A stretch of DNA of 64,000 bases from Candidatus Rokuibacteriota bacterium. Lineage in GTDB: Bacteria; Methylomirabilota; Methylomirabilia; Rokubacteriales; CSP1-6. The notes beneath the pieces are model-generated. The model was given only the letters and a program-made list of their open reading frames with translations, was not told the DNA's origin and made no database searches. Shown here piece after piece: positions 1 to 21,434 of this stretch (position 1 is its first letter; every line of letters begins with the position of its first letter). The position numbers and the translations under genes were made by a program. Location of the stretch: positions 52,394 through 116,393 of the forward strand of contig JAUSJX010000141.1 of assembly GCA_030647435.1 (NCBI GenBank), read 5' to 3'.

Positions 1-1379
1 AGGTCGAGGGCGCGGGTCGCGGCCGGCATCACGGCCAGCATGGTCGCGGCCACGACGGCCCCAGTCCACCGTCCGGCGCGGCGCCACGCGCTCACGGTGA
101 GAACGGCCGCTCCCGCCGCCATGATCAGCGCCGTCCGGGTCACCAGCGGCTGGAGCGCGGACCAGGGCGGCAGCGGAGAAGCCTGGGCGGCGGCAGTCTC
201 CTTGCGCGTATAGACGTCGGTGGCCGAGAAGACTATGTCCAGGAAGCCCTTGCCGTCGCCGGCGGCCACCAGGCCGAGCCCCACGGCGACGAGCGCGAAG
301 AGCCCCGCGTGGACGAGCGCCGGCGCGCGGCCGCGCTCCCCGCGCTCGGTCCACCAGCGCGCCGCCAGCAGCGCGACGGCCGGGTACGCCGGCAGACCGT
401 AGTGGGGCAGCTTGAAGGTTGTCAGCGTGAAGAGGCCCCAGAGCCCGATCACCCACACGGCGAGGGCGACCCAGGGGGTCTCCTCGGGATCGCGCCAGGC
501 CCGCCTGCGGTAGAGCGACACCACCATGAGCCCGGCGGGAAGGACCCACGGAAATGCGCCCAGCGCGGCCACGGCAAGGAACTCCGCGGTGGCAAGCGGG
601 ACGTCTTCATCCGGAAAGTGGCGGAGCCCGACCGCATTAAGGATGTGGTTGTCCACAACAGCGTACCAGAGAAAGCCCGGATGCCGGAGCGCGCTCCAGG
701 CATACCAGCCCAGACCCACCAGTAGCATGAGCGTCACTCCCTCCCACGGCAGCCACTGGCGGACAGGCCGCAAGCGCCCACAGGCCGCGAGCGCGACGGC
801 GACGGCAGCCAGGGGCCACATGAGCCCGAGCGGGTCCTTGGCGAGCGACGCAACGCCGAGCGCGGCGCAGCCTGCGACAGCCCAGCGCCTTGCGCGGCGT
901 CCTTCGCCCGTCACGCCCAGCAGGAGGCCCGTCAGGCCGATCTGGATGGCGGCCGCGAAGAGCGTCTCGGGACGGACGTAGCGGCCGAAGACCGCGAAGA
1001 GCGCGCAGGACAGGAGCGCGGCGGCGGCGAGGAGCCCGGCGCCCGGACCGAGGAGACGCGCGCCGAGAAACGCCGTCGCGGCGGCGGCGGCCGCCGCGGC
1101 CGCGAGCGAGGGCAGCCGCGCGGCCCACTCGGACGGACCCCAGGCGCGGAAATCGAGCGCGATCAGCCAGTACAGGAGCGGCGGCTTGTCGAAGTAGCGG
1201 ACGCCGTTGAGTCTCAAGTCGAGCAGATCGCCGGAGGCCCAGGCCTCGCGCGCGATCTCGGCATGCTGGCCCTCGCCCGGATCGTCGAACGGCGCTCGCC
1301 CGAGGCCGGGCAGGAGGAGCGAGAGCGCCAGGAGCGCCGCAAGGACCGCGACGGCCCATGACGCCGCCGGGCGCGTCAC
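1..1379 (-). CDS. GT-C fold glycosyltransferase, ArnT/PMT-like (lipid-carrier dependent); 3' end runs off the left edge
   Basis: Absent from the ORF track because it is open at the window edge. Hand translation of the minus strand from GTG at 1379 gives an uninterrupted frame to position 3: VTRPAASWAVAVLAALLALSLLLPGLGRAPFDDPGEGQHAEIAREAWASGDLLDLRLNGVRYFDKPPLLYWLIALDFRAWG...SLAKDPLGL...FKLPHYGLPAYPAVALL. This is the multi-TM, YFDKPPL-type pattern of ArnT/PMT transferases. GTGA start/stop overlap with the upstream ATPase gene. Confidence 0.7.
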   Translation of the reverse strand, partial: MTRPAASWAVAVLAALLALSLLLPGLGRAPFDDPGEGQHAEIAREAWASGDLLDLRLNGVRYFDKPPLLYWLIALDFRAWGPSEWAARLPSLAAAAAAAAATAFLGARLLGPGAGLLAAAALLSCALFAVFGRYVRPETLFAAAIQIGLTGLLLGVTGEGRRARRWAVAGCAALGVASLAKDPLGLMWPLAAVAVALAACGRLRPVRQWLPWEGVTLMLLVGLGWYAWSALRHPGFLWYAVVDNHILNAVGLRHFPDEDVPLATAEFLAVAALGAFPWVLPAGLMVVSLYRRRAWRDPEETPWVALAVWVIGLWGLFTLTTFKLPHYGLPAYPAVALLAARWWTERGERGRAPALVHAGLFALVAVGLGLVAAGDGKGFLDIVFSATDVYTRKETAAAQASPLPPWSALQPLVTRTALIMAAGAAVLTVSAWRRAGRWTGAVVAATMLAVMPAATRALD

Positions 1380-2074
1380 GCTGCGGGCGCGGCGGGCCCC
1401 GGCGCGAGGCGGCCGTCGCGGAGCCGCAGCACGCGATCGGCACCGGCCTGCGTCTCGGGACGGTGCGTGACGAGCACTACGGCTGCGCCGCGCGCAGCAG
1501 TCGAGGCGCGAAGCTCGGCCAAGATCACCCGCGCGTGCTCGTCGTCGAGGTTGCCGGTCGGCTCGTCGGCCAGCAGCAGCGGCGGGCGATTGAGGATCGC
1601 GCGGCAGTAGGCGACGCGCTGCTGCTCCCCGCCCGAGAGCTGGGCCGGGTAGTGGTCCTTGCGGTGCGCGACCCCCATCCGCTCGAGAAGGGCCAGCGCC
1701 TCGCGCCGCGCCACGGCGCGGTCCCGGCCGACGTAGCGCGCCGCGAGCACCACGTTATCGAGCGCGGTCAGCCCGGAGAGCAGCAGGAAGGACTGGAACA
1801 CGTAGCCGATGGAGGAGCCGCGCACCCGCGCCTGGGCGCGGCGGCCGAGGTGGCTCACGCGCTCGTCGCCGAGCCAGACCTCGCCCGCGGACGCCGGCTC
1901 GAGCAGCCCCAGGAGATTCAGCAGGGTGGTTTTGCCCGACCCCGACGAACCTGTCACCGCCACGAACTCGCCGCTCCGGACCTCGAGATCGATGTCGTGG
2001 AGCACCGGCACGGGAGCGCCGCCCGGGCCGAGAAAGGTCTTGGAGAGCCCCGTCGCCCGCAGCAAGGGGATCAA
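1376..2074 (-). CDS. ABC transporter ATP-binding protein (LolD/MacB/FtsE type)
   Basis: 232-aa ORF. Walker A GSSGSGKTT, signature LSGGEQQRV, Walker B LLLADEPTGNLD. Start codon is TTG at 2074, preceded by GAGGG. Confidence 0.9.
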   Translation of the reverse strand: MIPLLRATGLSKTFLGPGGAPVPVLHDIDLEVRSGEFVAVTGSSGSGKTTLLNLLGLLEPASAGEVWLGDERVSHLGRRAQARVRGSSIGYVFQSFLLLSGLTALDNVVLAARYVGRDRAVARREALALLERMGVAHRKDHYPAQLSGGEQQRVAYCRAILNRPPLLLADEPTGNLDDEHARVILAELRASTAARGAAVVLVTHRPETQAGADRVLRLRDGRLAPGPAAPAA

Positions 2075-2128
2075 TTCAGCCCTCGCATTCTACTCAGCCC
2101 TCGTAGTCTATTCAGCCCTCGGCTCGCG
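2075..2128. repeat. 3 x 18-bp imperfect tandem direct repeat in the permease-ATPase spacer
   Basis: TTCAGCCCTCGCATTCTA / CTCAGCCCTCGTAGTCTA / TTCAGCCCTCGGCTCGCG at 2075-2092, 2093-2110 and 2111-2128. The core CTCAGCCCTCG also occurs inside the long-form palindromic elements at 14578 and 57755. Confidence 0.8.
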
Positions 2129-2198
2129 CCTTCGTCGCTTACCTCGAACCGCCACATGCTCGTGCCTGCGGCAGCTCGGCCATGTCTCGGCTCGAACA

Positions 2199-3383
2199 TC
2201 AACTGCCGCGCCGGATCGCTTCGGCGGGCGAGAGCCGCGCGATCCGGAGCGTCGCGTAGCCGGCCGCGAGCGCCCCCAGCGCGAGCGAAAAGACAAGGGC
2301 GAAGGCGAGGAGGCGCGGGGAGAAGAGGAAGAGCTGCTGCCCGTCGCGGAGCACGCGCGCGTCCACCGCGGTGCCGATGCTCCACGCCAGCAGCACGCCG
2401 GCCACCCCGCCCCAGAGGCTCACGCGGATTCCCTCGCCCAACACCTCGCCGAGAAGATCGAGATCCGTGGCGCCCAGCGCGCGCTTGATGCCGAAGTCCC
2501 GGATGCGCTCGAAGACGGCCGCCGTCACCGTGTTGGCGAGCGACAGGCCTCCGATGAGAAGCCCAAGGGCGCCGATCCCGAGCAGGAGCGCGGAGAAGAA
2601 GGCGGTCGACTGTCGGAGGAGGCGGCTCAGCTCGCCGGGAATCGTGACGTTGAGGCCGGCCACCGTCGCCTGGATGCGGCGGGCCAGAGCGTCCGGGTCC
2701 TCGCCGTCGCGCCAACCAACCGCGGCGCCGGTGTTGAGGTCTCCGCGGCGCAGGGAGCCCGAACCGAAGACCTGGACGAGGAGCGGGTCCCGCCGGAGCC
2801 ACAGCTCGCGCGTGTCCTCGATGGGGACGAGCGCGAAGCGATCGGGGGCCGTGAAGGTCTTCTCGAGGATGCCGACGGCGGTGAAGTCCTGGCCGCCGAG
2901 CGTCACGGAGGCGCCGGCGCTGAGATGCCGCGAGGCGGCGAAGTCCGCACCCAGCACCGTGGCCCGCCGATCGCCCGGGCGGAGCGGCCGCCCCGCGGCA
3001 ACCGGCAGCTCGCGGTAGTGGCGGTTGGGGATGGGCACGCTCACGTCCATGCCCATGATGAGCTCCTGGGTCAGCGTGAGAAAGTGCGACGTGCTGGTAT
3101 TGAGCGGCAGCATCACCTGCGCCTGGACGCCGGAGACTCCGGGCACGGCGGCGATCTCGCGGATCTTGGCCGCGGAGAGGAGCCCGCCGGCGGTGAAGCC
3201 CGTACCCATGCCCATCCCCTCGCCCGCGACGGAGATCTGGCCCAGCACGAAGCGGTCGCCGCCCTCGATGAAGCGCGTGATGCGCTCGGCCATGGCGCCC
3301 AGCGACACCAGTCCCGCCACCCCAACGGCGATGCCGACGACCGTAAAGGAGTAGCCCCGGGGCAAAAACTCCCGGAGCCTCAC
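2199..3383 (-). CDS. ABC transporter permease, FtsX/MacB/LolE type
   Basis: C-terminal 394 aa of the 723-aa track ORF. GTG at 3383 forms a GTGA overlap with the upstream stop. N-terminal TM FTVVGIAVGVAGLVSLGAM, a large extracytoplasmic domain, then three C-terminal TMs (LLLGIGALGLLIGGLSLANTV, LWGGVAGVLLAWSIG, AFALVFSLALGALAAGYATL). The upstream Arg/Pro-rich extension looks like a GC-frame artefact. Confidence 0.85.
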   Translation of the reverse strand: MRLREFLPRGYSFTVVGIAVGVAGLVSLGAMAERITRFIEGGDRFVLGQISVAGEGMGMGTGFTAGGLLSAAKIREIAAVPGVSGVQAQVMLPLNTSTSHFLTLTQELIMGMDVSVPIPNRHYRELPVAAGRPLRPGDRRATVLGADFAASRHLSAGASVTLGGQDFTAVGILEKTFTAPDRFALVPIEDTRELWLRRDPLLVQVFGSGSLRRGDLNTGAAVGWRDGEDPDALARRIQATVAGLNVTIPGELSRLLRQSTAFFSALLLGIGALGLLIGGLSLANTVTAAVFERIRDFGIKRALGATDLDLLGEVLGEGIRVSLWGGVAGVLLAWSIGTAVDARVLRDGQQLFLFSPRLLAFALVFSLALGALAAGYATLRIARLSPAEAIRRGS

Positions 3384-5710
3384 CAGCCGAGCCTCGACTC
3401 CACGGGCCGGCCGCGCCAGCGGCGCAGCCACCGGGTGACGCGCACGATCGCGAAGAAGACGGTGAGCGAACCCCGCATGCGAAGCCGCATGCGCAGAAAG
3501 GCGCCGCCCGCCAGGACTCCCAGGACGCTGTCGAGGATCCCCAGCCGGTTGCGCGGCTGGAGAAAGACCTCGAGGAAGGCGGGCTCGTAGTAGCGGCGGA
3601 TGAAGCGGACGAACGGGCTGACGCCGCGATGGACGCGCCGCACGTACCCGTTGAAGCGCCGCGCCTCGAAGCGGTCCTCGGCGAAGGCGGCGAGGATCTC
3701 CGCGGCCGCCATCTCGCCCGTCTGCATGGCGATGTAGACGCCCGAGGAGAAAATGGGATCCACGAAGGCCAGCGAGTCGCCGACGCAGAGGAAGCGGTCG
3801 CCCGCCACCGGGTGTGTCAGGTAGGAGAAGTTCGCCGCGCTCCGCACGGGTGTGACGCGGCGGGCCCCGCGGAGCCCCTCCGCGACCCGGCGGCAGCGGA
3901 AGATCATCTCCTCGTACAGCGCCTCGAGCGTGCCCTCCCGCCCCCGCGCCGTCTTCGCGTGGAGGACGCAGCCGATGCTCGTCAGGCCGCCCGCGAACGG
4001 GATCCACCAGAACCAGCCGTCCTCGAAGATGTAGAGACGGATCAACCCCTCGTCGCGCCCCTGCCAGCGCGGCGCGCCCTCGTAATGGGCGAAGAGGGCG
4101 ACCTTGCCGAGGCCCGGGATGGGAGCGCGCCGGCCCACGCGGCGCGAGGCGAGAAAGCCGTCCCGGCCGCTGGCGTCGACGACGAAGCGCGCGCGAAGCG
4201 CCCGCGACTCGCCGCCCTCGCGGATCCCGACGGTCGCGCCGTCCGCGTCGAACTCCACCCGCTCCACCGTGGCCGGCTGAAGCACGCTCGCGCCCGGCTC
4301 CTTGGCGGCGTGCTCGAAGAGGATCTGGTCGAACTCCGCCCGAGGCACCTCGTAGCTGTAGTTCGGCCACGGCTGGCCCTCGCGGAAGTAAAAGCGGTAC
4401 TCGAGATCGGACTCCTGGTCGTGGAAGGCCGCCCCGTACTTGACGAGGAAGCCGTGCCGTTCGATCCGCTCGCGGACACCGAGCCGGTCGAGCAGCGGCA
4501 TCATGGCCGGCAGGAGCGATTCGCCGACGTGAAAGCGCGGGAAGACCTCGCGCTCCGCGATCGCCACGCGCAGGCCCCCGCGGGCGAGGAAGGTCGCGGC
4601 CGTCGAGCCGGCCGGCCCGCCACCCACGACAAGGACATCATAGTCCGCCGGCGGTGACTCGGGCCGCGCGGCGCCGGGCAGCGACGCGGCCAGCCGTTCC
4701 TGTGAAAATATCCGCCGTACGAGGGGCGAGACAAGGTTGGGACCCGGACGCCGTCCGAGCCCGAGCGCCCCCTGCACCGCCGCTGCCGCCGCCAGCACGG
4801 GCAGCGCCGCGGTTGCCAGGGCCGCGCGGCGCATGACGCAGGCCCGCGGGTCCCACCACCAACCCCGCCAGCTTTGGGCGATGCGGTCGAGCATGAAGGC
4901 TCCCATCGCCATCGCGTAGGCTCCGTAGTTGTAGCGGTACGGCGCCGCGAAGCGGTGCATCTCGCGGTGACGCTGCTTGAGGCGCGCGGGCGTGAGCGGC
5001 CTCAGGAGCACCGCCGCGACGATCCCCGCATCCCGGACCCAGCGCCGGATGCCGCGGGCTATGAGATACGTCGCCACGGCGGTGCCGTCGCGGAGCGGCC
5101 GGAAGTGGCTCGGCCGTCCCGCCCCGAGCCCCGGCGTCACCGGGACTTCGCGGATGGCGAAGCCCGCCGCGGCGGCCCGCAAGAGCATCTCGCTCTCGAG
5201 CACGAAGCCGCCGCGCCGCGGCCTCACCGCCTCGAGCAGCTTCCGCGGGTAGACGCGGAACCCGGACTGCGTGTCGGCGACGGCCTGCCCGGTCAGCCAG
5301 TTGATGAAGAAGCCGGCCACCCGCTGCGCGTTCAGGCGGGCGGGCTCCATGGAGGCGCCGCCATCGGAGAGCCGGCTCCCGATGACGAGCGTTCCCGGCA
5401 GGGCGGCGGACGCCGCGAGAAGCTGCGGAATGTCATCGGGATCGTGCTGCCCGTCTCCGTCGAGCGTGAGCACACGCTCGGCGCCGCGGGAGAGCGCCTC
5501 GGCGAAGCCCGCGCGCAGCGCCCCGCCCTTGCCGCAGCGACCGGCGAGGCGGAGCACGGCGGCGCCCGCGGCCGCGGCCGCGTCGGCGCTGCCGTCGGAG
5601 GAGCCGTCGTCCACGACGAGGACGGGGCCATGGCGCACCGCGCGCGCCACGAGAGCGCCGATCGTCGGGGCCTCGTTGAAGACCGGGATGACGGCGACGT
5701 GGTCACTCAT
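3380..5710 (-). CDS. Fusion protein: GT2 polyprenyl-phosphate glycosyltransferase-like domain (GtrB/ArnC type), hydrophobic linker, flavin-dependent halogenase domain
   Basis: 776 aa. N-terminus VIPVFNEAPTIGALV...VVDDGSSDGS...LDGDGQHDP is a GT2 DxD-type fold. Hydrophobic segments follow (YGAYAMAMGAFML, AALATAALPVLAAAAAVQGALGLG). C-terminal half has DYDVLVVGGGPAGS (GxGxxG), FPRFHVGESLLP, GWFWWIPF (WxWxIP) and FVDPIFSSGVY. Confidence 0.8.
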   Translation of the reverse strand: MSDHVAVIPVFNEAPTIGALVARAVRHGPVLVVDDGSSDGSADAAAAAGAAVLRLAGRCGKGGALRAGFAEALSRGAERVLTLDGDGQHDPDDIPQLLAASAALPGTLVIGSRLSDGGASMEPARLNAQRVAGFFINWLTGQAVADTQSGFRVYPRKLLEAVRPRRGGFVLESEMLLRAAAAGFAIREVPVTPGLGAGRPSHFRPLRDGTAVATYLIARGIRRWVRDAGIVAAVLLRPLTPARLKQRHREMHRFAAPYRYNYGAYAMAMGAFMLDRIAQSWRGWWWDPRACVMRRAALATAALPVLAAAAAVQGALGLGRRPGPNLVSPLVRRIFSQERLAASLPGAARPESPPADYDVLVVGGGPAGSTAATFLARGGLRVAIAEREVFPRFHVGESLLPAMMPLLDRLGVRERIERHGFLVKYGAAFHDQESDLEYRFYFREGQPWPNYSYEVPRAEFDQILFEHAAKEPGASVLQPATVERVEFDADGATVGIREGGESRALRARFVVDASGRDGFLASRRVGRRAPIPGLGKVALFAHYEGAPRWQGRDEGLIRLYIFEDGWFWWIPFAGGLTSIGCVLHAKTARGREGTLEALYEEMIFRCRRVAEGLRGARRVTPVRSAANFSYLTHPVAGDRFLCVGDSLAFVDPIFSSGVYIAMQTGEMAAAEILAAFAEDRFEARRFNGYVRRVHRGVSPFVRFIRRYYEPAFLEVFLQPRNRLGILDSVLGVLAGGAFLRMRLRMRGSLTVFFAIVRVTRWLRRWRGRPVESRLGW

Positions 5711-6834
5711 GCCGCTTGCCCGACGACAAGGGCCGTACGGCAGCCGCCGCGGGCGATCCCGTGCACCAGCGCGGGCGCGCGCCCCGCGCGCGCGTCGAGC
5801 GCTGCGGCGGCGACACGGAGGGCGCCGAGTCCTCCATGCTGGCCGAAGAGCGGCGCCAGCGACACCGGATCCCGCACGCCGTCGGCCGCGAGCAGCCGCA
5901 GCTCCCAGTCATCGAGCGCCGGGTCGCCGTTGCCCGAGCCGTAGCAGCGCGCCAGAGACGCGGCCTCGACGCCCGCCTGGTCCAACGCCCGGCGCGCGAT
6001 GGCGCGCGCGTCGCGCCGGCCGGCAGGGGCCGTGTGCGGAGCCACCGGGATGCCGCCCCAGGCGGCACCCAGGACTTCGGCATGGATCGCGGCGCCGCGC
6101 GCCCGCGCCGCCTCCCTCTCCTCCAGCACCAGGAAGGTGGCGCCTTCGCCGAGCACGGGCCCGTTGTGGTCGTGAGCAAAGGGGCGGCAGCCTTCGGGAG
6201 CACCGCCGCCCATCGGAGAGAGCGCCCCCAATCGGGCCAGGTTCCGGTAGACGTCGCTGAAGAGCTCGTCCACGCCGCCGGCGACCACGGCCTCCGCCCG
6301 CCCGTCGGCGATGAGCGCGGCCGCCCGCGCCACGGCCAGATCGCCGGCCACCGTCGCCTGGTTGAGCGTCACGGAGGACGCCTTGGCGCCGATGGCGATG
6401 GCCGCCACTGCCGCCATGCTGTTCATCACCGTGCTCGGGAACACCATCGGCGAGAGCCCCGCCGGCCCGCGGCGGAGGAAGCCGTCGAAGAACTCCGCGC
6501 CCGAGCGGAAGTCGCCGAATTCGCTGCCGACGACGAGCCCCAGCCGCGGGCCGCCCTCGAGCCCGGCCTCCTCGACGGCCAGGCGGCAGGCGGCCAGGGT
6601 CATGCGGCAGATCCGCGAGAGCCGGCGCACGCTGTCGGAGTCAAGCAGCGCCATGAGCCGCGCGTCGCTAACCTCGGCAGCCAGGCGGCTCGCGCACCCG
6701 TCCAGGGTGAAGGCTTTGAGTGGCGCAATGGTGGCCCTCCGCCGCTCGAGCGCCTGGGCCACGGCCGCTGTGCCGCCGGCCCCGGCCGCGCTGACCGAGC
6801 CCATCCCCGTGATCACGACCCGGCGCCCGGACAT
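5707..6834 (-). CDS. Ketosynthase-like protein lacking the active-site Cys and both His (chain-length-factor/KS-beta-like partner)
   Basis: ATG at 6834 (MSGRRVVITGMGSVSAAG...). The position of the KS TACASG motif reads TLNQATVAGD. The usual HGTGT and GH motifs read GSGNGDP and FGQHGG. TAATG and ATGA overlaps with its neighbours. Confidence 0.75.
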   Translation of the reverse strand: MSGRRVVITGMGSVSAAGAGGTAAVAQALERRRATIAPLKAFTLDGCASRLAAEVSDARLMALLDSDSVRRLSRICRMTLAACRLAVEEAGLEGGPRLGLVVGSEFGDFRSGAEFFDGFLRRGPAGLSPMVFPSTVMNSMAAVAAIAIGAKASSVTLNQATVAGDLAVARAAALIADGRAEAVVAGGVDELFSDVYRNLARLGALSPMGGGAPEGCRPFAHDHNGPVLGEGATFLVLEEREAARARGAAIHAEVLGAAWGGIPVAPHTAPAGRRDARAIARRALDQAGVEAASLARCYGSGNGDPALDDWELRLLAADGVRDPVSLAPLFGQHGGLGALRVAAAALDARAGRAPALVHGIARGGCRTALVVGQAA

Positions 6835-8021
6835 TATCGGCCGAAGATCAGGCTCACGTTGTGGCCGCCGAAGCCGAAGGAGTTGGACAGCGCGGCGTGC
6901 AGCTCGACGGGGCGCGCCGTCTGAGCGACGCAGTCGAAGGGCACGTCCGGGTCCGGATCGGTCAGATTGGCGGTCGGCGGAATCAGCCCGTGCTGCAGCG
7001 CGAGGAGGGTCGCCACCGCCTCGACGCTGCCCGCCGCCGCCATGGTGTGGCCGACGAGCGACTTGGTCGAACTCACCAGCACGCGGCCCTCCCCGAAGAC
7101 GCGCGCCATGGCCAGGGCCTCGACACGGTCGTTCTGCGGCGTCCCCGTGCCGTGCGCGTTGACGTAGCCGATGTCGCCCGGCTCGCGCCCGGCCGCGTCG
7201 AGCGCATCGGACATGGCGCGGATCATCCCCTCGCCCTCCGGGTGCGGCGCCGTGACGTGGTGGGCGTCCGTGGTGACGCCGGCGCCCAGGAGCTCGCCGA
7301 GCACGCGCCCGCCGCGCCGGCGGCAGTGCTCGGAGTCTTCGAGCACGACAAACGCGGCTGCTTCGCCGATGGACATGCCGCGCCGCCCGCGGTCGAAGGG
7401 CCGGCACGGCTCGGGGTCGAGCAGCTTGAGCGCATTGAAGCCCATGAAGCAGATGCGCGTGATGGCATCCACGCCCCCCGCGAGCGCCAGCGGGGTCGCG
7501 CCGGAGCGGATGAGGTCGGCGCCGAAGGCTATGGAGGCCGCGCCGGAGGCGCAGGCCATGACCACGGTCTCCCTGGGCCCGCCGAGCCCCAGCCGCCAGC
7601 CGAGCATCTCCGCGTGGCTCGCCGGCAGGATGGAGCGGAGCGCCCCGATCCTTGGCGAGGGCCGCAGGCGAAGCGCCTCTTCACAGTACCAACCCTCGCC
7701 CTCGAGCATGCCGCCGCCCACGGCGCCGACGAAGAGCGCCATGTCCGTCCGGTCCCGCGGCGCGAGGTCGGCGTCGGCCACGGCCTCGCGGGCCGCGGCA
7801 AGGGCCAGGCGGTCGGCGCGCGAGCGCCGGCGAGAGACGCCGAGGGCGCCGACGACGTCGGCGGGCACCTCCGCCGCGATGCGCGACCGAAAACCCTCCG
7901 TGTCGATGACGGTCAGCGGCCGGATGGCGCACTGGCCCGAGGCCAGGCCGGCCCAGAAGGTCTTAACACCGGCGCCGTAGGGGCTGACGACGCCGAGGCC
8001 GCTGACGACGACGCGCGTCAT
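6834..8021 (-). CDS. Beta-ketoacyl-ACP synthase (FabF/KS-alpha type, catalytically intact)
   Basis: ATG at 8021 (MTRVVVSGLGVVSPYG...). Cys motif VVMACASGAASIA, His motifs NAHGTGTPQND and VGHTMAAAGS. Confidence 0.9.
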   Translation of the reverse strand: MTRVVVSGLGVVSPYGAGVKTFWAGLASGQCAIRPLTVIDTEGFRSRIAAEVPADVVGALGVSRRRSRADRLALAAAREAVADADLAPRDRTDMALFVGAVGGGMLEGEGWYCEEALRLRPSPRIGALRSILPASHAEMLGWRLGLGGPRETVVMACASGAASIAFGADLIRSGATPLALAGGVDAITRICFMGFNALKLLDPEPCRPFDRGRRGMSIGEAAAFVVLEDSEHCRRRGGRVLGELLGAGVTTDAHHVTAPHPEGEGMIRAMSDALDAAGREPGDIGYVNAHGTGTPQNDRVEALAMARVFGEGRVLVSSTKSLVGHTMAAAGSVEAVATLLALQHGLIPPTANLTDPDPDVPFDCVAQTARPVELHAALSNSFGFGGHNVSLIFGR

Positions 8022-8287
8022 TTCAACTTGGAGAGGACGAAGCGGGACAGGGTGTCGAGGGAAAGAAAATCGTCGGCCAGGCTCTCGGTCTCGTCGATGA
8101 CGATGCCGAAGCGCTCCTCCATCGCGACGGAGAGCTCGATGAAGTCCAGCGAGTCGAGGCCGAGCGAGCCCTCGACGCCCTTGGGCAGCGTGGTTTCGAG
8201 CGTCATCTCGGCCGCGCGGCCCGGATCGAACTTCAGGCGCTCGACGATCAGCGTTTTGAGCTCGTCCAGGATCTCCTTCTGCGTCAT
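8018..8287 (-). CDS. Acyl carrier protein
   Basis: 89 aa, MTQKEILDELKTLIVERL...LGLDSLDFIELSVAMEERFG with a DSL phosphopantetheine-attachment serine. ATGA overlaps on both sides. Confidence 0.9.
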   Translation of the reverse strand: MTQKEILDELKTLIVERLKFDPGRAAEMTLETTLPKGVEGSLGLDSLDFIELSVAMEERFGIVIDETESLADDFLSLDTLSRFVLSKLK

Positions 8288-9120
8288 GCGATCCGCCTCC
8301 GCCGGGGCCGCGCCGCCCCGCGCATCTGGTATGGGCTCTGGCTCCACGCGAGCCGCGCCGACTCGCCCCGCCATGCGCCCTGTAAGCGTAGCGGTCCCGT
8401 GGCGCCGCCGTCGCGCGCGAGGGCCAGGACCGCCACGGGCTCGCAAGCCAGCATCTCGCCGAGGCGCTGCCGCACGCCTCCCGTCTCCCGCCGCCCGCCA
8501 CGCCTCTGATCGAAGCTGAGCGTGCCCTCGCCCGGCTCGAGCCAGAGGCAGCCGGCCGCCTCCACCAGCGGCCGCGCGAGCCGCCCCCGCGCTCGCGCGA
8601 AGAGATTTTCGCACTCCTCGAAGATCTCGACAGCCAGGACCAGCGCGCGGTCGCAGGCTCCAGATTCCAGGAGCGCCGCCGCGCGCGCGATGGCTCTCAT
8701 CGTCGCCGTGGGCCCGCCGATCAGGATCTCGTACGGGCCTGTGAGCCCGAACTCGATGGCGACCTCGGCCGGCACCGCGGCGGCCGCCGTGTAGGGGAAA
8801 TACATGCCGCCGATCCGCGCCTCGATGAACTCGCGGTTGGAGGCCGCATACGCGGCAGCGGTGGCGAAGAGAAGCCCTGTCCGCTCGCCCGCGATGATCT
8901 CGGCCCCTACCCCAGCATCTTCCAGCATGGCGCCCACAGCCGCAACCCCCAGGAGAGATTCGCGCCGCGAGCGCCGGAAGCGCTCGTGGGTGAAGGCGGG
9001 CCGCTCGATGCTCAGGACGGCGCGTCCCACGGCGGCCCGTGCGGCGTCCGAGGGCACGGCCGCCGCGCCAGGTCCCCAGCCCGACAGCAGCCCCACGGCC
9101 CGGATCGCCGGAGCGCGCAT
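8284..9120 (-). CDS. Truncated thiolase-fold / KS N-terminal-like protein without a catalytic Cys
   Basis: 278 aa. KS-like N-terminal half (LLGVAAVGAMLEDAGV..., GLTGPYEILIGGPTATMRAIARAAALLESG) in which the Cys position is Thr/Ala-type. No C-terminal His motifs. Confidence 0.65.
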   Translation of the reverse strand: MRAPAIRAVGLLSGWGPGAAAVPSDAARAAVGRAVLSIERPAFTHERFRRSRRESLLGVAAVGAMLEDAGVGAEIIAGERTGLLFATAAAYAASNREFIEARIGGMYFPYTAAAAVPAEVAIEFGLTGPYEILIGGPTATMRAIARAAALLESGACDRALVLAVEIFEECENLFARARGRLARPLVEAAGCLWLEPGEGTLSFDQRRGGRRETGGVRQRLGEMLACEPVAVLALARDGGATGPLRLQGAWRGESARLAWSQSPYQMRGAARPRRRRIA

Positions 9121-10295
9121 CAGGCGCTCTCGATCACGAGGGCCGCGTTGCAGCCGCCGAAGCCGAGCGACGTGGACAAGCTCACGCGCGGCCGTACGGC
9201 GCGCGGCGAGCCCTGGACGCAGTCGATGTCGCAGGCCGGGTCGCGTTCTTCGAGGCCGAGCGTGGCCGGCACCTGGCCGTAGCGCCCCGCGAGGAGGCAG
9301 ACGATGGCTTCGAGCGCCGCCGCCGCTCCCATGGTGTGGCCGAGCGCGCCCTTGATCGAGTTGACAGGCACCTCGCCTCCGCGAGCGCCGAGCACGCGCC
9401 GGAGCGCGGCCGCCTCGATTGGATCGTTCAGCGGCGTCGCGGTGCCGTGGGCGCTGACGAAGTCGATAGCGTCAGGTCCGACCCCGGCGTCCGCCAGCGC
9501 CCTACGCATGGCGCGCTCGATGCCGCGGCCGTCCGGGTCGGGCGCCGCGATGTGGGCGCCGTCGCTGGCGCTGCCGTAGCCGAGGAGCGTGCCGAGCCGG
9601 CGCGCGCCGGCCTCTCGCTCCCGCCGAAGCAGGAGCAGCCCCGCAGCCTCGCCCAGAAGGAGCCCGCTCCGGCGCCGGTCGAAGGGCCGCACGCGCTCCC
9701 GCGTGAGCGAGCGGAGGCCGTCGAAACCGCGCATCACGAAGCGGCAGAGGATGTCGTAGCCGCCGGCGACGACGGCGTCGGCCTCGCCGCGGCGGAGCAT
9801 GTCGGCCCCGATAGCGAGCGCGGTGGCGCCCGAGGCGCAGGCCGTCGAGACCGTGACGGCGGGACCACGGGCGCCCAACCAGCGCGCGAGCCGGTGCGCC
9901 GGCGCGTCATAGAGCGCGGCGCGGAGACGCCTCGCCGATCCGCCGCACAGGGCGCGCTCGCCCTCTTCCACCCCGCCGAGCGCCGTGCCCACGACGACCG
10001 CGAGGCGCTCGGGTTCGACGTCCAGCGGCCGCTCGCCGGCCTGCACGCAGAGATCGTCGGCGGCCGAGACGAGCAGCCGTGTCGCGCGGCAGTCGGGGAC
10101 GCGCCGCCAGTCCACCGCGCGCGTGAGCTTCTTGATCTCGCCGCCGCGCCCCACGCGGAGATCCGCCACCGGAAAACGCTCCACGGCCGAGGTGCCGTCG
10201 GCGCCCGTGAGCAGCCCCGACCAGAAGGTGTCGAGGTCCTGTCCAATGGGCGTGACCACACCGGCGGCCACGATGGCGATGCGCTCGGCTGGCAT
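9120..10295 (-). CDS. Beta-ketoacyl-ACP synthase (second catalytically intact KS)
   Basis: MPAERIAIVAAGVVTPIG... from ATG at 10295, the internal Met of the 403-aa track ORF, 1 nt after the upstream stop. VSTACASGATALA, SAHGTATPLND, GHTMGAAAA. Confidence 0.9.
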   Translation of the reverse strand: MPAERIAIVAAGVVTPIGQDLDTFWSGLLTGADGTSAVERFPVADLRVGRGGEIKKLTRAVDWRRVPDCRATRLLVSAADDLCVQAGERPLDVEPERLAVVVGTALGGVEEGERALCGGSARRLRAALYDAPAHRLARWLGARGPAVTVSTACASGATALAIGADMLRRGEADAVVAGGYDILCRFVMRGFDGLRSLTRERVRPFDRRRSGLLLGEAAGLLLLRREREAGARRLGTLLGYGSASDGAHIAAPDPDGRGIERAMRRALADAGVGPDAIDFVSAHGTATPLNDPIEAAALRRVLGARGGEVPVNSIKGALGHTMGAAAALEAIVCLLAGRYGQVPATLGLEERDPACDIDCVQGSPRAVRPRVSLSTSLGFGGCNAALVIESA

Positions 10296-10296
10296 A

Positions 10297-11073
10297 TTAA
10301 AGGAAGGGGGAGTAGTACATGCGGAAGGCACGTATCGCGCCGGGCTCGGTGTCGTAAACGCCGGAGGCGAAGAAGCTGCGCTCGGCCCGATCGAAGGCGA
10401 CCCGGCCCGGCTCTTCGGGCTCGTTGGGGTCGTAGACGATGAACTCGATGAACCGGCCCTCGTAGATCCGGTAGTCGTAGGCGATGACGGTGTGGTTCAG
10501 CTCGACCTTGGGCAGGTTGGTCACGAGAAGCTGGACCATGCGCCCCGCGTCGAGCTCGGCCAGAGTCTCCCGCGCCACGCGCTCCTGCTGCCCGCCCGTT
10601 ACGGGGAAGACCACGCGCCAGTTGGTCCACTGGATAAAGGTCCAGACGAACCCGCCGAGGCCGGCCTTCACGGCCGCCTCCTGCGCCGCGGAGAATTCGT
10701 AGAGCGAAGCGTAGCCGGGAATCACGACCCGTTCCGCGGGAGGGAGCGGATCCTCCCACGGCGCCCGCGCCACGACCTCGCTGACGAGGCGGGTGTAGAC
10801 GGGAGGCTCGACGCGCGGCAGCTCCGGAGCGAAGCGCGCGAAGCGATGGAACTGCGTGACAGCGCGCGCCATGACAAAGCAGTAATTGGCGTACATGTCG
10901 GTCTTGCCCGGATTCTTCCAGCGGATGTCGTTGCGGAACGCGAACGTATCCACCCCGAACCGGAGGGCGGCGCCCGACGTGGGCCGCGGCGCGCTCCGTT
11001 CGATCGGGGGCGCGGTCGCGCAGCCGGCGAGAACCAGCATCAGGCAGAGCAAGCGGGCAACATGGCGCATCAT
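10297..11073 (-). CDS. Lipoprotein of unknown function
   Basis: 258 aa. Signal peptide with lipobox MMRHVARLLCLMLVLAGC. The mature part contains spaced YANYCFVMA ... NHTVIAYDY ... IVYDPNE (Cys/His/Asp). Confidence 0.7.
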   Translation of the reverse strand: MMRHVARLLCLMLVLAGCATAPPIERSAPRPTSGAALRFGVDTFAFRNDIRWKNPGKTDMYANYCFVMARAVTQFHRFARFAPELPRVEPPVYTRLVSEVVARAPWEDPLPPAERVVIPGYASLYEFSAAQEAAVKAGLGGFVWTFIQWTNWRVVFPVTGGQQERVARETLAELDAGRMVQLLVTNLPKVELNHTVIAYDYRIYEGRFIEFIVYDPNEPEEPGRVAFDRAERSFFASGVYDTEPGAIRAFRMYYSPFL

Positions 11074-11093
11074 CGTTAAGCGAGTTTACCCCG

Positions 11094-11858
11094 TCAGCCC
11101 TGGATGGAATAGCCCCCATCAACCGGGATGGCCGCTCCGGTGATGAAATCGGACGCGGGACTGGCAAGAAAGACGGCCACGCCGGCCATGTCCTGCTCCA
11201 CACCCCAGCGCTTCGCCGGCGTGCGCCTGAGCACGCTCTCGTGCAGCCCCTCGATCTGCTGGCGCGCCCGCTGCGTGAGCTCCGTGTCGATCCAGCCGGG
11301 CAGCACCGCGTTGACCTGGATGTTGTCCGCCGCCCACCCGGCGGCCATGGCCTTGGTCAGCTGGACCATGCCGCCCTTGGAGGCCGCGTAGGCCGGCGCG
11401 AACGAGGCGCCGAAGATGGACATCATGGAGCCGATGTTGATGACCTTGCCGCCGCCCTGCTTCTTCATCACGGGGTGGCAGGCGCGGCTCGCGAGGAAGG
11501 CGCTGGTCAGGTTGACGTCGATGACCTGGCGCCACTCGCCGAGCGCGAGGCTCTCGACGGGCTTGCGGATGTTCATGCCGGCGTTGTTGACGAGGATATC
11601 GAGCCTGCCGAAGCGCGCCACGGTCGCCTTGACGAGCGCTTCGACCGAGCCCTCATCGGCGACGTCCACCTCGATGGCCTCCGCCTCGCCACCGAGTCCA
11701 CGCAGCTCAGCGACGGCCCGCGCGCTCTTCTCGCGATTGCGCGCCGCCACCACGACGGCCGCGCCCGCCTCCGCGAGCCCGCGCCCCATGCCGAGCCCGA
11801 TGCCGCCGTTACCGCCCGTGACCACCGCCACGCGACCCTTCAGATCGAAAGCGCCCAC
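11094..11858 (-). CDS. SDR family oxidoreductase (3-oxoacyl-ACP reductase-like); first gene of the operon
   Basis: 254 aa. GTG start at 11858 preceded by AAGGGGGAA. TGGNGGIGLG cofactor motif and YAASKGG (YxxxK). Confidence 0.9.
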   Translation of the reverse strand: MGAFDLKGRVAVVTGGNGGIGLGMGRGLAEAGAAVVVAARNREKSARAVAELRGLGGEAEAIEVDVADEGSVEALVKATVARFGRLDILVNNAGMNIRKPVESLALGEWRQVIDVNLTSAFLASRACHPVMKKQGGGKVINIGSMMSIFGASFAPAYAASKGGMVQLTKAMAAGWAADNIQVNAVLPGWIDTELTQRARQQIEGLHESVLRRTPAKRWGVEQDMAGVAVFLASPASDFITGAAIPVDGGYSIQG

Positions 11859-11983
11859 GGTCGGGTTCCCCCTTGGAGTCGACGGATGTGCTAAAGGTGA
11901 GGGGCAGTGTACCCGCTCGAGGGGCTCCTGTGAAGCGCTCCCGCTGGACCGCCCGCTTGATTCAGGGGGCCGCCTCGTTTAGC

Positions 11984-12457
11984 ATGGCGGCCATGTGGCA
12001 GGGGTCGGTGGTCTCGATCCACATCACTTCCGCGGCGGGCCAGCCGATGGAAACCGTGCCGGAGGCGCGCGCCGTCGCCGGCCGCGGCCTCGAGGGTGAC
12101 CGCTACTTCGCCGGCACCGGCTACTACTCGGACAAGCCCGGTGAGGGCGGACGCGAGCTGACGCTGATCGAGACGGAGACCCTCGAGGCGCTTCCCGCCC
12201 TCGGCGTCAAGCTCTCGGCGGCCGAGAGCCGCCGCAACATCGAGACCGCGGGCGTTCCGCTCAACCACCTGGTCGGCCGCGAGTTCCGGGTCGGCGCGGT
12301 CCGGCTTCGCGGCACCCGGCTCTGCGAGCCGTGCAGGTACCTCGACGGCCTCACGCAGCAGGGCGCCATGGCGGCCCTGATTCATCGCGGGGGCCTGCGG
12401 GCGCAGATCCTCATCGACGGCCTCATCCGTGTCGGCGACACCATCACGCTGGCCTAA
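11984..12457 (+). CDS. MOSC domain-containing protein
   Basis: ATG at 11984 (or 11993) within the 194-aa track ORF. GLEGDRY..., RRNIET..., conserved TRLCEPCRYL cysteine motif. Confidence 0.8.
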   Translation: MAAMWQGSVVSIHITSAAGQPMETVPEARAVAGRGLEGDRYFAGTGYYSDKPGEGGRELTLIETETLEALPALGVKLSAAESRRNIETAGVPLNHLVGREFRVGAVRLRGTRLCEPCRYLDGLTQQGAMAALIHRGGLRAQILIDGLIRVGDTITLA

Positions 12458-12475
12458 CCACTACAGGAGAACACC

Positions 12476-13309
12476 ATGGAGATGGAACGGCGCGACTTCC
12501 TCAAGCTCGGCGCGGGAGCCCTCACCTTCAGCCTGGCCGCCGAAGCGGCGTGGGCGCAGACTAACAAGATCGAGGTCCAGTGGCTCGGGCAGGCGACGAC
12601 CAAGATCACGACGCTGACGGGCAAGGTGATCGTCATCGACCCGTTCATGGTCAACAACCCCAAGACGCCGGTGGGATGGAAGAACCTCGACGCCCTCGGC
12701 AAGGTGGACGTGATCCTCGTGACGCACGGCCACGGCGACCACACGGGCGACGTGGCGGAGCTGGCGAAGCGCACCGGGGCGACGGTGCTGGGGGACGGCG
12801 GGCTCATGCAGACCCTCGTGGACCTGGGCTGGGTGCCGGCCGACAAGGCCGTCCGCTTCGGCAAGGGCGGCAAGGTCCAGCCCGCGGGGCCGCAGATCAC
12901 GATCACCCAGACGCACGCCGAACACTCCTCGGAGGTGACGGTCACCGACCCGGCGACGAAGAAGAGCACGACCTACCCCGCCGGCCAGCCCGCGGGCTTC
13001 ATCGTCGAGATGGAGAACGGCTTCAAGCTCTACCACATGGGCGACACGGGGCTCTTCGGCGACATGCGGCTCATCGGCGAGTACTACAAGCCCGATCTCA
13101 TCATGATCCCGATCGGCGGACACTTCGTGATGGACCCGAAGGACGCGGCGTACGCGACCAATCAGATGCTCAAGCCGAAGTACTCGATCCCGTTCCACTA
13201 CGGCACGTTCCCCGTGCTCAAGGGCACGCCGCAGGAGTACCAGGCGGCGCTCGGCCAGACAACCACTCAAGTGTTCCCGATCAGCCCGGGAGACAAGCTC
13301 CAGTTTTAA
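12476..13309 (+). CDS. Metallo-beta-lactamase-fold hydrolase with Tat-type signal peptide
   Basis: 277 aa. RRDFLKLGAGALTFSLAAEAAWA twin-arginine leader and VTHGHGDH metal motif. AGGAGA upstream of the ATG. Confidence 0.85.
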   Translation: MEMERRDFLKLGAGALTFSLAAEAAWAQTNKIEVQWLGQATTKITTLTGKVIVIDPFMVNNPKTPVGWKNLDALGKVDVILVTHGHGDHTGDVAELAKRTGATVLGDGGLMQTLVDLGWVPADKAVRFGKGGKVQPAGPQITITQTHAEHSSEVTVTDPATKKSTTYPAGQPAGFIVEMENGFKLYHMGDTGLFGDMRLIGEYYKPDLIMIPIGGHFVMDPKDAAYATNQMLKPKYSIPFHYGTFPVLKGTPQEYQAALGQTTTQVFPISPGDKLQF

Positions 13310-13439
13310 GTAGGTCTATGAAAGAAGATGAAGCCAAAGACGTTGAGGCAGAGGGGCAGGACTATCTGCCACACCGAGTACGCCTTCCAGGATTCATCCT
13401 TGATGAAGATGCGGGTCTCGGATTATGAGGAGAGTAACC

Positions 13440-14363
13440 ATGGAACAAAACGAAGTGAAACAACAATCAGCCAACCAAGCTGCGGCGGGTCACGATGTCG
13501 CCGCGATGACGCCAGCCCAAGAGTATGTTGCTATGCCACCACCGGCTGAGGAGGCACCTTGCCCAACTTGCTCAGGCGGGGCGGCTTCTATGCCTATGTC
13601 CTACGTCCATGCCCTTGGCCGGATCGAAGCACGATTTCCGCGCCTATCGATTGAGAAAGAGTTTGCCCAGGTTGCGGGTCGCTCTGAAACCGCTGGAATG
13701 ACCGATCGCAAAGTATTTCATGCCATCCTGTCAAAACGCGAAAACCGTTATCTAGCGCGCCAAATGTGCTGGGTGCTGACCATTCAGGGCCTAGAGACCT
13801 ATATTTTGCACCCGCGCGACCCAGTAGACTTCGAGCGTTTAGTGGAAGCCATTCGCCCGATGCCCAGCCCAAATGACATTGATGTGGTGATTGGGATAAA
13901 AGGCCCCATCGCTCCACCAGAGCTATGCAACGGGCTTATGGTTCCGATTGTCGCGTTCGACCAGATCTATTCCTTCGACCGCGATACGCTCATCAAAGCC
14001 ATTCCGAGCCCTGAGAAGGTCAAACCAGAGACGTTTAGACCCGCAGCGGAGGAAGTGTTCAATAGGATCATGCAGATGACGGACAACACCGGCGCGACGG
14101 GTGAGCATCGGGCGCTGAATTATCTGGTCGTGCGCTATCCCGCCATCTATACAAAAGCGGCCGAAGAGTTCACACGAGACTTCTCGCTGACGGCGGTGAA
14201 AGTTCGTTCCTCACCCCTTAGCAGCACACGCAACATCGTCGAGGTCATTTTCTCCTACACCAACCGCAACACCGATTTCACCGAGAAGTTTTTTGTGCGC
14301 GTCGACGTGACCGAGGAGTTTCCATTCCTGGTCACCAAACTGTCGCCATACTTTGACCGTTAA
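13440..14363 (+). CDS. Stand-alone protein resembling the C-terminal domain of unknown function of PatA/PatG-family (cyanobactin-type) proteases
   Basis: ATG at 13440 is preceded by GAGGAGAG; the track start 13425 is also possible. From memory, SYVHALGRIEARFP...EKEFAQV, CWVLTIQGLETYILHP...FERLVEAI, LMVPIVAFDQIYSF and EHRALNYLVVRYPAIY...FVRVDVTEEFPFLV resemble the PatG C-terminal DUF. No protease domain. Gene is about 50% G+C. Confidence 0.45.
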   Translation: MEQNEVKQQSANQAAAGHDVAAMTPAQEYVAMPPPAEEAPCPTCSGGAASMPMSYVHALGRIEARFPRLSIEKEFAQVAGRSETAGMTDRKVFHAILSKRENRYLARQMCWVLTIQGLETYILHPRDPVDFERLVEAIRPMPSPNDIDVVIGIKGPIAPPELCNGLMVPIVAFDQIYSFDRDTLIKAIPSPEKVKPETFRPAAEEVFNRIMQMTDNTGATGEHRALNYLVVRYPAIYTKAAEEFTRDFSLTAVKVRSSPLSSTRNIVEVIFSYTNRNTDFTEKFFVRVDVTEEFPFLVTKLSPYFDR

Positions 14364-14390
14364 ACCCAAACACTGAAAGGAGGGTACCAA

Positions 14391-14600: not shown

Positions 14601-14703
14601 GCCCCTCAGCTCGAACGTCCACGTACGTTGAGCCTGCGGCCGAGGGCACCCCAACAGTCTTCTTGCTAAATGGCGCAGATGGGCTCTTTTCAGCAGCCTG
14701 CTA
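14509..14703. repeat. Palindromic MITE/REP-like element, copy A (long form)
   Basis: Termini TAACAGGCTGCTCAAAAGGGTCCAGATGCG ... CGCAGATGGGCTCTTTTCAGCAGCCTGCTA are imperfect inverted repeats. Near-identical core to the copies at 40739, 49372 and 57685. Confidence 0.85.
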
Positions 14704-21428: not shown

Positions 21429-21434
21429 TTTTCG

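Follow-up and report, generated by a model that had tools for sequence, protein, structure and literature searches.

What product, if any single one, is made by a run of ketosynthase (KS), acyl carrier protein (ACP), halogenase, glycosyltransferase and exporter genes packed on one strand is the question raised by the beginning of a 64,000-nucleotide stretch of DNA (the window) from a Candidatus Rokuibacteriota bacterium (contig JAUSJX010000141.1 of assembly GCA_030647435.1). Eleven minus-strand genes, their reading frames re-derived from the sequence, fill positions 1-11858 of the window. They encode, in order of transcription, a short-chain dehydrogenase/reductase (SDR), a lipoprotein, a first ketosynthase (KS1), a short KS-like protein, an ACP, a second ketosynthase (KS2), a protein resembling a chain length factor (CLF-like protein), a fusion of a family 2 glycosyltransferase (GT2) with a flavin-dependent halogenase, an FtsX/MacB_PCD permease, an ATP-binding cassette (ABC) ATPase and a glycosyltransferase of the GT-C class. 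The gene content and the domain calls of a preliminary description of this locus were upheld by Pfam, NCBIfam and PDB searches. We tentatively favor, with a confidence that falls somewhat short of probable, the explanation that these genes belong to one conserved Methylomirabilota operon for a specialized cell-envelope lipid, in which a core derived from aryl polyene (APE)/flexirubin-type clusters is combined with other modules. To judge from the encoded enzymes, the product of the operon is probably an undescribed membrane lipid.

Conservation of the operon and its continuation into hpnJ

The order of the operon genes was conserved in all of the 11 Methylomirabilota loci that were recovered, at 46-98% protein identity and with the tight junctions recurring. 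In L001, a 54-kb contig of the metagenome-assembled genome GCA_035936835.1, the operon proteins are 91-98% identical to those of the window, and the order is kept at 46-78% identity in L003-L009, L028 and L030. The preliminary description had placed all genes on the minus strand and had counted eight of ten junctions as overlaps or 1-nt gaps, and the same strings were read from the sequence in the present analysis (Table 1). GC content is 0.69-0.74 across the first 12 kb of the window. Because overlapping stop and start codons are frequent in high-GC operons, the junction count alone is little proof; the recurrence of gene order and tight junctions in the relatives is stronger evidence for an operon.

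In the relatives, the operon runs on beyond the GT-C gene. In each of the seven loci that are long enough, the GT-C gene is followed, sometimes with a DedA gene in between, by a gene for the B12-binding radical S-adenosylmethionine (radical-SAM) protein HpnJ. HpnJ of L001 scored 777.8 bits against an NCBIfam equivalog cut-off of 577.6, and the HpnJ proteins of the five loci in which the gene is complete are 63-66% identical (66% for L001) to HpnJ of Paraburkholderia (Burkholderiaceae) over 96% of its length; L005 and L008 hold HpnJ fragments only. The GT-C and hpnJ genes overlap by 1 base in L003 and are separated by a 50-nt gap in L001, and the junctions toward HpnJ in L004 are 1-nt overlaps or 15 nt. 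From L001, we infer that hpnJ also lies past the left edge of the window in this genome. At the other end of the operon, the SDR gene is missing in L007, L028 and L030, in which the gene upstream of the lipoprotein gene lies on the opposite strand and encodes dihydroorotate dehydrogenase or a GGDEF protein. The core of the operon does not include the SDR, which is a 5' addition specific to certain lineages. Because the flanks differ between these lineages, yet the block persists, the conserved unit is that from the lipoprotein to HpnJ. Thus, the eleven-gene unit of the preliminary description corresponds to a real operon, with the reservations that its first gene is not core and that in relatives the operon continues into hpnJ.

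Genetic evidence implicates HpnJ in the formation of bacteriohopanetetrol cyclitol ether from a glucosamine derivative (PMC13459092), and in a large genome survey no genome had the HpnJ domain unless it also had SHC and HpnH (bioRxiv 10.1101/2025.07.29.667474). By its continuation into hpnJ, the operon is linked to the chemistry of hopanoids or of cyclitol head groups. Outside the operon, the called genes of the window were scanned with Pfam, and no shc, hpn, FabZ/FabA or thioesterase genes were among them. To our knowledge, the HpnJ reaction has never been reconstituted.

Accessory genes vary between the lineages. A gene for an LpxL-type acyltransferase (Pfam Lip_A_acyltrans) lies between the lipoprotein and KS1 genes in L004, L007, L008 and L028 and downstream in L030, and is absent from the operon of the window and from L001 and L003. 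The acyltransferases of the relatives match the LpxL/LpxP-family and phosphatidylinositol mannoside (PIM)-acyltransferase models of NCBIfam and are 32% identical to the C-terminus of ApeJ. In some lineages, a DedA/VTT (UptA-like) protein is encoded beside the GT-C, between it and HpnJ. Both the acyltransferase and the DedA/UptA-like protein fit the explanation of the operon as one for an envelope lipid. A 149-aa secreted protein, which has a signal peptide, no lipobox and no family match, is encoded between the ABC ATPase and the GT-C in L004 (14219-14668), L005 and L007, and the window lacks it. L030 represents the most divergent lineage; there, HpnJ is followed on the same strand (17759-21981) by a 422-aa protein of no family, the LpxL-type acyltransferase and a 403-aa protein with a methyltransferase domain, and these genes may be an extension of the operon.

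Proteins for the proposed chain building, halogenation, glycosylation and export

The ketosynthases were compared with those of the E. coli CFT073 APE cluster and with E. coli K-12 fabF and fabB. KS1 contains both the N- and C-terminal ketoacyl-synt domains of Pfam with the Cys-His-Lys-His active-site columns intact. It is 36% identical to E. coli ApeO (196 bits, vs 173 bits for FabF) and falls in the ApeO-type group in a rough neighbor-joining (NJ) tree. KS2, likewise a Pfam ketosynthase with intact Cys-His-Lys-His columns, scored 209 bits against FabF vs 196 bits against ApeO, stayed below the NCBIfam fabF equivalog cut-off (353 vs 494) and grouped with KSs of acidobacterial clusters in the NJ tree; by similarity, KS2 is FabF-derived.

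Each of these KSs is accompanied by a protein that appears to be catalytically inactive. The short KS-like protein of 278 aa matches Pfam ketoacyl-synt (2.6e-8) over residues 52-180 only, which is the N-terminal thiolase half, and lacks the Cys and the His, with Pro in the Cys column; it is presumed to be a non-catalytic partner of KS1. In BLASTP, it had no pairwise similarity to ApeC, nor to a 201-aa open reading frame (ORF) at the equivalent position of a flavobacterial cluster (L036), and its equivalence to these two is one of position and domain type only. The CLF-like protein is of full length, but Pfam finds only the N-terminal ketoacyl-synt domain in it. It has Thr in the Cys column, has lost both His columns and carries a conserved Gln at position -2, which is kept in the acidobacterial and flavobacterial counterparts; the CLF-like proteins of the operon and of these two groups of clusters form one clade in the rough NJ tree. 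A Cys-to-Gln replacement, the classical CLF signature, was considered and rejected since the ungapped spacing to the flanking Gly places Thr in the Cys column, and the protein thus lacks the Gln in place of the active-site Cys by which CLFs of type II polyketide synthases (PKSs) are recognized. It is presumed to be the inactive partner of KS2.

The best PDB match of KS1 is 9s5h_B. Chains B and C of 9s5h/9s5i constitute a recent heterodimer of two "ketosynthase" chains of ~412 aa. Of all solved structures, this heterodimer matches KS1 best (228 bits), and it is among the better matches to the CLF-like protein (110 bits). A literature search found no paper on PDB entry 9S5H. This heterodimer may provide a structural template for the KS/partner pairs of the operon.

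The ACP (89 aa) has a Pfam PP-binding domain and a DSL motif. ApeE is its closest reference (32% identity, E 1e-9), and weak NCBIfam matches to AmcB, AcpP and PRK09184 were also obtained. The SDR (254 aa) matches adh_short_C2 (7e-64) and KR (1e-14) of Pfam, is 35% identical to E. coli FabG vs 28% to ApeQ, and remains under all NCBIfam cut-offs; it is a candidate FabG-like ketoreductase.

The GT2-halogenase fusion consists of 776 aa, with Pfam Glycos_transf_2 at residues 7-161 and Trp_halogenase/FAD_binding_3 at residues 356-709. Hydropathy indicates a clear hydrophobic segment at 296-319 of the linker and a weaker one before it, from which the number of transmembrane (TM) segments can be estimated. 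The halogenase domain matches ChlB4 (1e-66), PltA, Mpy16, CmlS and CndH in the PDB (E 1e-66 to 1e-54). It retains GGGPAGS (GxGxxG), K424, WFWWIP (WxWxIP) and FVDPIFSSG (FxxPxxSxG), all of them invariant in 16 sequences, and K424 aligns with the Lys of the stretch K(K/Y)(F/Y)GAA of PltA/ChlB4. By analogy with ChlB4, PltA, Mpy16 and CndH, the domain would be an active halogenase of the subclass that uses carrier-protein substrates, acting on an ACP-tethered chain. The GT2 domain, for which the N-terminus of the fusion has a PDB match to ArnC, carries invariant DDGS and DGDGQH (DxDxQH) motifs that are common to ApeJ. It is 26% identical to the N-terminus of ApeJ (E 4e-18) and stays far below the NCBIfam ArnC equivalog (44 vs 529). 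ApeJ has been proposed to attach N-acetylgalactosamine (GalNAc) to lipid phosphate, and APE lipids bear GalNAc-phosphate-glycerol (bioRxiv 10.1101/2020.12.19.423268); the GT2 domain might accordingly function in the manner of ApeJ, as an alternative to that of ArnC.

Among the 1.84 billion representatives of a 50%-identity library, essentially one full-length representative of the fusion was found, and the other strong matches were fragments, stand-alone halogenases or stand-alone GT2s. The fusion has hundreds of metagenomic relatives, the named ones of which belong to Methylomirabilota/Rokubacteria, and more than 120 distinct 90%-identity clusters from metagenomes matched it. Two further candidates for GT2 fusions, P0312 and P0325, were rejected, one as a spurious N-terminus and the other as a fusion of an ABC ATPase with a halogenase. 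Seemingly full-length proteobacterial matches in a genome scan were also rejected; they are halogenases beside separate ApeJ-like GT2s, often in reverse order.

The lipoprotein has an LAGC lipobox and DUF8321/DUF8322 (PF26995 and PF26997, precomputed for orthologues); the protein itself had no match in the local copies of Pfam and NCBIfam. It has 1408 homologues, all of which are unnamed. Cys65, His194 and Asp215/Asn217 are invariant, and Cys65 lies at the N-terminus of a predicted helix. An AlphaFold2 model has a pLDDT of 72, and the best Foldseek matches are the Mac-1/IdeS papain-like cysteine proteases, which are weak (E 0.03, TM 0.25). The lipoprotein may be a papain-fold Cys-His-Asp enzyme and may act as a periplasmic hydrolase or acyltransferase rather than as a carrier alone. 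The permease contains FtsX and MacB_PCD domains (Pfam) and four TM segments with a MacB-like periplasmic domain, and its PDB matches are MacB. The ATPase matches Pfam ABC_tran, with NCBIfam matches to DarD, MacB, LolD and DevA that are all below cut-off. Together, the permease and its separate ATPase have the features of a type VII ABC transporter (MacB/LolCDE), with scores below every LolC, LolD, LolE and MacB equivalog of NCBIfam. The GT-C, which at full length has 587 aa in L001, matches PMT_2 there with 4e-13 and scored 87.9 bits against NCBIfam ArnT (cut-off 567); the only PDB match of the GT-C is ArnT (5ezm). These scores make the GT-C ArnT-like by fold family only.

Relation to known clusters and the possible product

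The preliminary description had likened the locus to aryl polyene, xanthomonadin and flexirubin-type clusters, and the resemblance can now be given in numbers through the similarities, reported above, of KS1 to ApeO, of the ACP to ApeE and of the GT2 domain to ApeJ. With the APE cluster (apeA-R of E. coli CFT073/Xenorhabdus doucetiae), the operon shares a core resembling type II fatty acid synthase (FAS), in which an ApeO-like KS and a dedicated ACP are accompanied by a short gene presumed to encode a non-catalytic partner, as well as a GT2 domain homologous to the N-terminus of ApeJ, and the acyltransferase of its relatives resembles the C-terminus of ApeJ. Unidirectional overlapping genes, a lipoprotein and a dedicated exporter are further shared features (PMC8253772). 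The operon differs from the APE cluster in having one ACP instead of two (ApeE/F), a second KS/CLF-like pair, and a GT2 fused to a halogenase and not to an acyltransferase. It adds the ArnT-like GT-C and HpnJ, and is devoid of the ApeK thioesterase, the ApeB methyltransferase and ApeG. No tblastn match to the ApeI/ApeP dehydratases was found in the 64-kb window, and no hot-dog domain appeared in the Pfam tables of L001, L003 and L004 or among the scanned genes of the window. Instead of ApeM (MMPL), ApeL (LolA-like) and ApeN (DUF3261), of which no homologues were found, the operon has the MacB-type ABC pair and the DUF8321/8322 lipoprotein. The search for a homologue of the starter ligase ApeH returned none, the only AMP-binding gene being 48 kb away. 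The earlier claim that the window holds no dehydratase, thioesterase or adenylating enzyme thus stands for the operon, in its relatives as well, and has to be amended for the window by this one gene, at 60341-61870 on the minus strand. The gene is of the acyl-CoA ligase type and belongs by location to a LIV-type ABC transporter cluster; its position gives it no relation to the operon. Lacking several defining features, the operon is, by its gene content, outside the APE family proper.

Flexirubin-type clusters of Flavobacteriia, such as that of Salegentibacter chungangensis (L036), share with the operon the order of KS, small ORF, ACP, KS and inactive CLF-like gene, and their CLF-like proteins belong to the clade with Gln two residues before the lost Cys. 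A Lip_A_acyltrans-type acyltransferase, a ketoreductase and a flavin-dependent halogenase adjoining the cluster are also common to both. A tyrosine/histidine ammonia-lyase and a polysaccharide deacetylase, along with LolA and a 4HBT thioesterase, set L036 apart from the operon, and it lacks the GT-C, the MacB-type ABC pair and HpnJ; its halogenase, 29-30% identical, is a separate, divergently transcribed gene. In a xanthomonadin-like cluster of Luteibacter sahnii (L074), a GT2 of the lipid-phosphate type is followed 25 nt later by a WxWxIP halogenase, which is the order of the domains in the fusion, and both lie directly downstream of ApeO-/ApeC-like genes. Unlike in the operon, the GT2 and the halogenase are separate genes there, and the halogenase is more distant (23-30% identical). 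This type of cluster is otherwise canonically APE-like, with ApeH, ApeI, ApeM and ApeQ in a related gammaproteobacterial locus (L056).

The last two genes of the conserved unit have parallels in other systems. The relatives of the operon share with the hpnI-hpnK-hpnJ systems of Burkholderia/Paraburkholderia an HpnJ orthologue above the NCBIfam equivalog cut-off, encoded after the GT-C. In Paraburkholderia, however, there is an overlap of hpnJ with hpnI and, close by, a second hpnI-hpnK pair, whereas HpnJ of the operon follows an ArnT-like GT-C and a KS/ACP/halogenase block. With the ArnC/ArnT system and its DedA/UptA recycling, the operon shares a GT2 of the polyprenyl-phosphate type paired with a GT-C and, in some relatives, a DedA gene; it differs in the absence of ArnA, B, D, E and F and in a GT2 that is no less similar to ApeJ, an enzyme proposed to act on a glycerolipid phosphate. 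The ArnC/ArnT-style pair suggested earlier is nevertheless plausible, as ArnT is the sole PDB match of the GT-C and some relatives insert the DedA/UptA-like gene. No published description of the operon was found in the literature on Rokubacteria/Methylomirabilota with aryl polyenes or halogenases.

A model for an envelope-lipid pathway can be proposed, each chemical step of which, like the product itself, is deduced from the observed gene identities, active-site states, gene order and co-conservation. Malonyl units would be assembled into an acyl or polyketide chain on the dedicated ACP by two pairs, KS1 with the short partner and KS2 with the CLF-like protein. Housekeeping fatty-acid synthesis would supply malonyl loading and dehydration, as well as keto-reduction where the SDR is missing, unless these steps are left out. 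The halogenase domain would halogenate the chain while it is ACP-bound or membrane-associated, and the fused GT2 would glycosylate a lipid phosphate on the cytoplasmic side of the membrane, like ApeJ and ArnC. The ArnT-like GT-C would then use the lipid-linked sugar on the outer face, with the carrier recycled by DedA in some lineages. HpnJ could turn an amino-sugar head group into a cyclitol, as in bacteriohopanetetrol cyclitol ether, and the MacB/LolCDE-type ABC pair, together with the periplasmic lipoprotein, would extract or mature the product for the outer membrane. With little confidence, the product may be specified further as a halogenated acyl/polyketide chain with a sugar-derived cyclitol head group, possibly on a hopanoid, HpnJ operating outside its HpnI/HpnK context on a lipid-phosphate amino sugar that is made by the fusion and transferred outside by the GT-C. 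The halogenated, glycosylated polyketide lipid that the preliminary description had put forward as product likewise stays conjectural.

Several points weigh against a single operon for an envelope lipid. HpnJ is a cytoplasmic radical-SAM enzyme, whereas the site of action of GT-C enzymes is the outer face, so that the two may not have an intermediate in common; this is the main internal tension of the model. HpnI and HpnK were found neither in the window nor in any of 84 loci. Because a dehydratase is absent, the operon as annotated cannot by itself make a conjugated polyene, and flavin-dependent halogenases usually require electron-rich substrates (aryl, pyrrole or enol). The variant in the window has no acyltransferase to join the chain to an anchor. 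For MacB-type transporters, an adaptor or outer-membrane partner is usual, and no gene for either was found in the operon. Both KS1 and KS2 group with ApeO-type/cluster-associated KSs and not with E. coli FabF/FabB, but in a rough NJ tree that has no bootstrap and E. coli sequences as its only housekeeping references. Co-transcription is no proof of a single pathway. The reading that the KSs belong to a housekeeping clade and that their neighbors are not co-conserved, which the preliminary description had named as its own refutation, is not borne out by this grouping with ApeO-type KSs and by the co-conserved neighbors.

Alternatively, the operon could be one for remodeling lipid A or the outer membrane, of the rhizobial very-long-chain fatty acid (VLCFA) type. 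KS and ACP would extend an ordinary fatty acid with housekeeping FabG, FabZ and FabI, an LpxL-type acyltransferase would attach it to lipid A or a related glycolipid, and the GT2 and GT-C would add a sugar like ArnC/ArnT, with a hopanoid link as in hopanoid-lipid A. The AcpXL/FabF1XL/FabF2XL/LpxXL cluster and the hopanoid-lipid A of Bradyrhizobium are parallels to such an arrangement. The missing dehydratase and enoyl reductase, and the missing ketoreductase of some lineages, fit with housekeeping FAS, and the absence of a dehydratase makes a saturated or hydroxylated chain, produced by housekeeping enzymes, possible. The top score of KS2 against FabF, the LpxL/LpxP-family membership (Lip_A_acyltrans) of the relatives' acyltransferase, and the PDB matches of the GT-C (ArnT only) and of the GT2 (ArnC) point in the same direction. 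We nonetheless regard this explanation as unlikely, for KS1 resembles ApeO more than FabF and the ACP resembles ApeE more than AcpP, the KS-x-ACP-KS-CLF cassette and the adjacency of GT2 and halogenase are features of the flexirubin/xanthomonadin type, a halogenase of the carrier-protein type has no role in the known VLCFA pathway, and neither the window nor L001 nor L003 has the acyltransferase in its operon.

The sidedness of HpnJ and the GT-C, which by established knowledge are placed on opposite membrane faces, could also mean that there is no common product, and that the genes form independent co-transcribed modules under shared envelope-stress regulation: an APE-like module for a pigment or lipid, a module for Arn-like glycosylation that includes the exporter, and a stand-alone HpnJ step for hopanoid cyclitol ether. 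The 124-nt FtsX-ABC spacer and the 50-nt gap before hpnJ in L001 would allow internal regulation; the SDR, the acyltransferase, the 149-aa periplasmic protein and DedA vary between lineages; and the canonical partners of HpnJ, HpnI and HpnK, are not present. This proposal is made doubtful by the order from the lipoprotein to HpnJ, which survives down to 46-58% identity while the flanks change, by overlaps that bridge the supposed modules (CLF/GT2, GT2/FtsX, ABC/GT-C and, in L003, GT-C/HpnJ), and by the physical fusion of halogenase and GT2, which joins the first two of them. A canonical aryl polyene pigment cluster with dehydratases, 4-hydroxybenzoate activation, thioesterase and MMPL/LolA export encoded elsewhere in the genome is very improbable: the homology to ApeO, ApeE and ApeJ and the 36-40% identity of the halogenase to those in proteobacterial APE/xanthomonadin-like clusters would suit it, but ApeH, I, K, L, M, N and P are absent both from the 64-kb window and from the 10 kb around the operon in 11 relatives, an absence whose consistency across deep divergence makes it a feature and not an assembly gap, and export relies on another class of system.

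Soils harbor Methylomirabilota (Rokubacteria) in abundance; hardly any of them have been cultured, and their envelope chemistry is essentially unstudied. Because the operon is conserved phylum-wide and the fusion occurs in more than 120 metagenomic 90%-identity clusters, the product is likely to be a major, environmentally widespread lipid. If the explanation of the operon as one for a specialized envelope lipid holds, a halogenated or cyclitol-bearing lipid would be a candidate biomarker for Methylomirabilota, the chemistry of APE-type clusters would be extended beyond pigments, and a non-canonical use of the hopanoid enzyme HpnJ could come to light. The less likely halogenated product with a cyclitol head group would, if made, be the first halogenated envelope lipid assigned to Methylomirabilota, and cyclitol lipids would then have a second route, one dependent on polyprenyl phosphate. 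From the fusion of GT2 and halogenase, it seems that halogenation takes place at the membrane, which is unusual for flavin-dependent halogenases.

Operon layout and neighboring genes

The coordinates and junctions of the operon are collected in Table 1. The candidate promoter is the sole sigma-70-like site in 1-12600, one being found vs 0.4 expected from shuffles. Terminator-like matches within the operon were no more frequent than by chance.

Table 1. Operon features in the window, in order of transcription, with the junction between each gene and the one after it
Feature	Position	Strand	Junction to next gene	Remark
Sigma-70-like promoter candidate TTCACA-17-TACACT	11906-11934	-		48 nt 5' of SDR start; consensus match only
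SDR	11094-11858	-	20-nt gap	
Lipoprotein	10297-11073	-	TAA-T-ATG, 1-nt gap	
KS1	9120-10295	-	TGATG, 1-nt overlap	
Short KS-like protein	8284-9120	-	ATGA	
ACP	8018-8287	-	ATGA	
KS2	6834-8021	-	TAATG	
CLF-like protein	5707-6834	-	ATGA	
GT2-halogenase fusion	3380-5710	-	GTGA	
FtsX/MacB_PCD permease	2199-3383	-	124-nt gap	
FtsX-ABC intergenic spacer	2075-2198	-		124 nt; read from sequence
ABC ATPase	1376-2074	-	GTGA	TTG start
GT-C gene	1-1379	-		Frame open from 1379 to left window edge, no stop

The FtsX-ABC spacer contains three direct copies of CGAGGGCTGA(A/G)T(A/T)GA with 18-nt spacing; L001 has two copies and L003 none. A nonamer from this spacer, GAGGGCTGA, recurs on the minus strand near 14587 and 57763.

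Upstream of the operon, the stretch 11873-16802 has a lower GC content (0.62-0.64) and carries MOSC, metallo-beta-lactamase-fold (MBL), DUF169 and NucS_C-like genes. This stretch looks inserted, because the SDR gene of L003 and L004 comes immediately after genes for RNase D and a 317-aa membrane protein; L001 shares its MOSC, MBL and DUF169 genes. Within it, a 312-aa protein encoded at 13425-14363 on the plus strand, which is absent from L001, matches PatG_D and PatG_C (Pfam 1.6e-32 and 2.8e-34) and has no protease domain; PatG_D/PatG_C are accessory domains of cyanobactin-maturation proteases. The 317-aa protein is encoded in the window at 17144-18097 on the minus strand. It is a polytopic membrane protein with an internal duplication, its halves of ~150 aa sharing "REG..G..GA..VA.WFL.YD.A.G.PLRTPALLGAA", and has no Pfam/NCBIfam match; it is a conserved neighbor on the strand of the operon. 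Farther to the right, ABC transporter clusters of the LIV type (branched-chain amino acid) occur at least four times in the window, at 22-27, 34-38, 42-47 and 61-64 kb.

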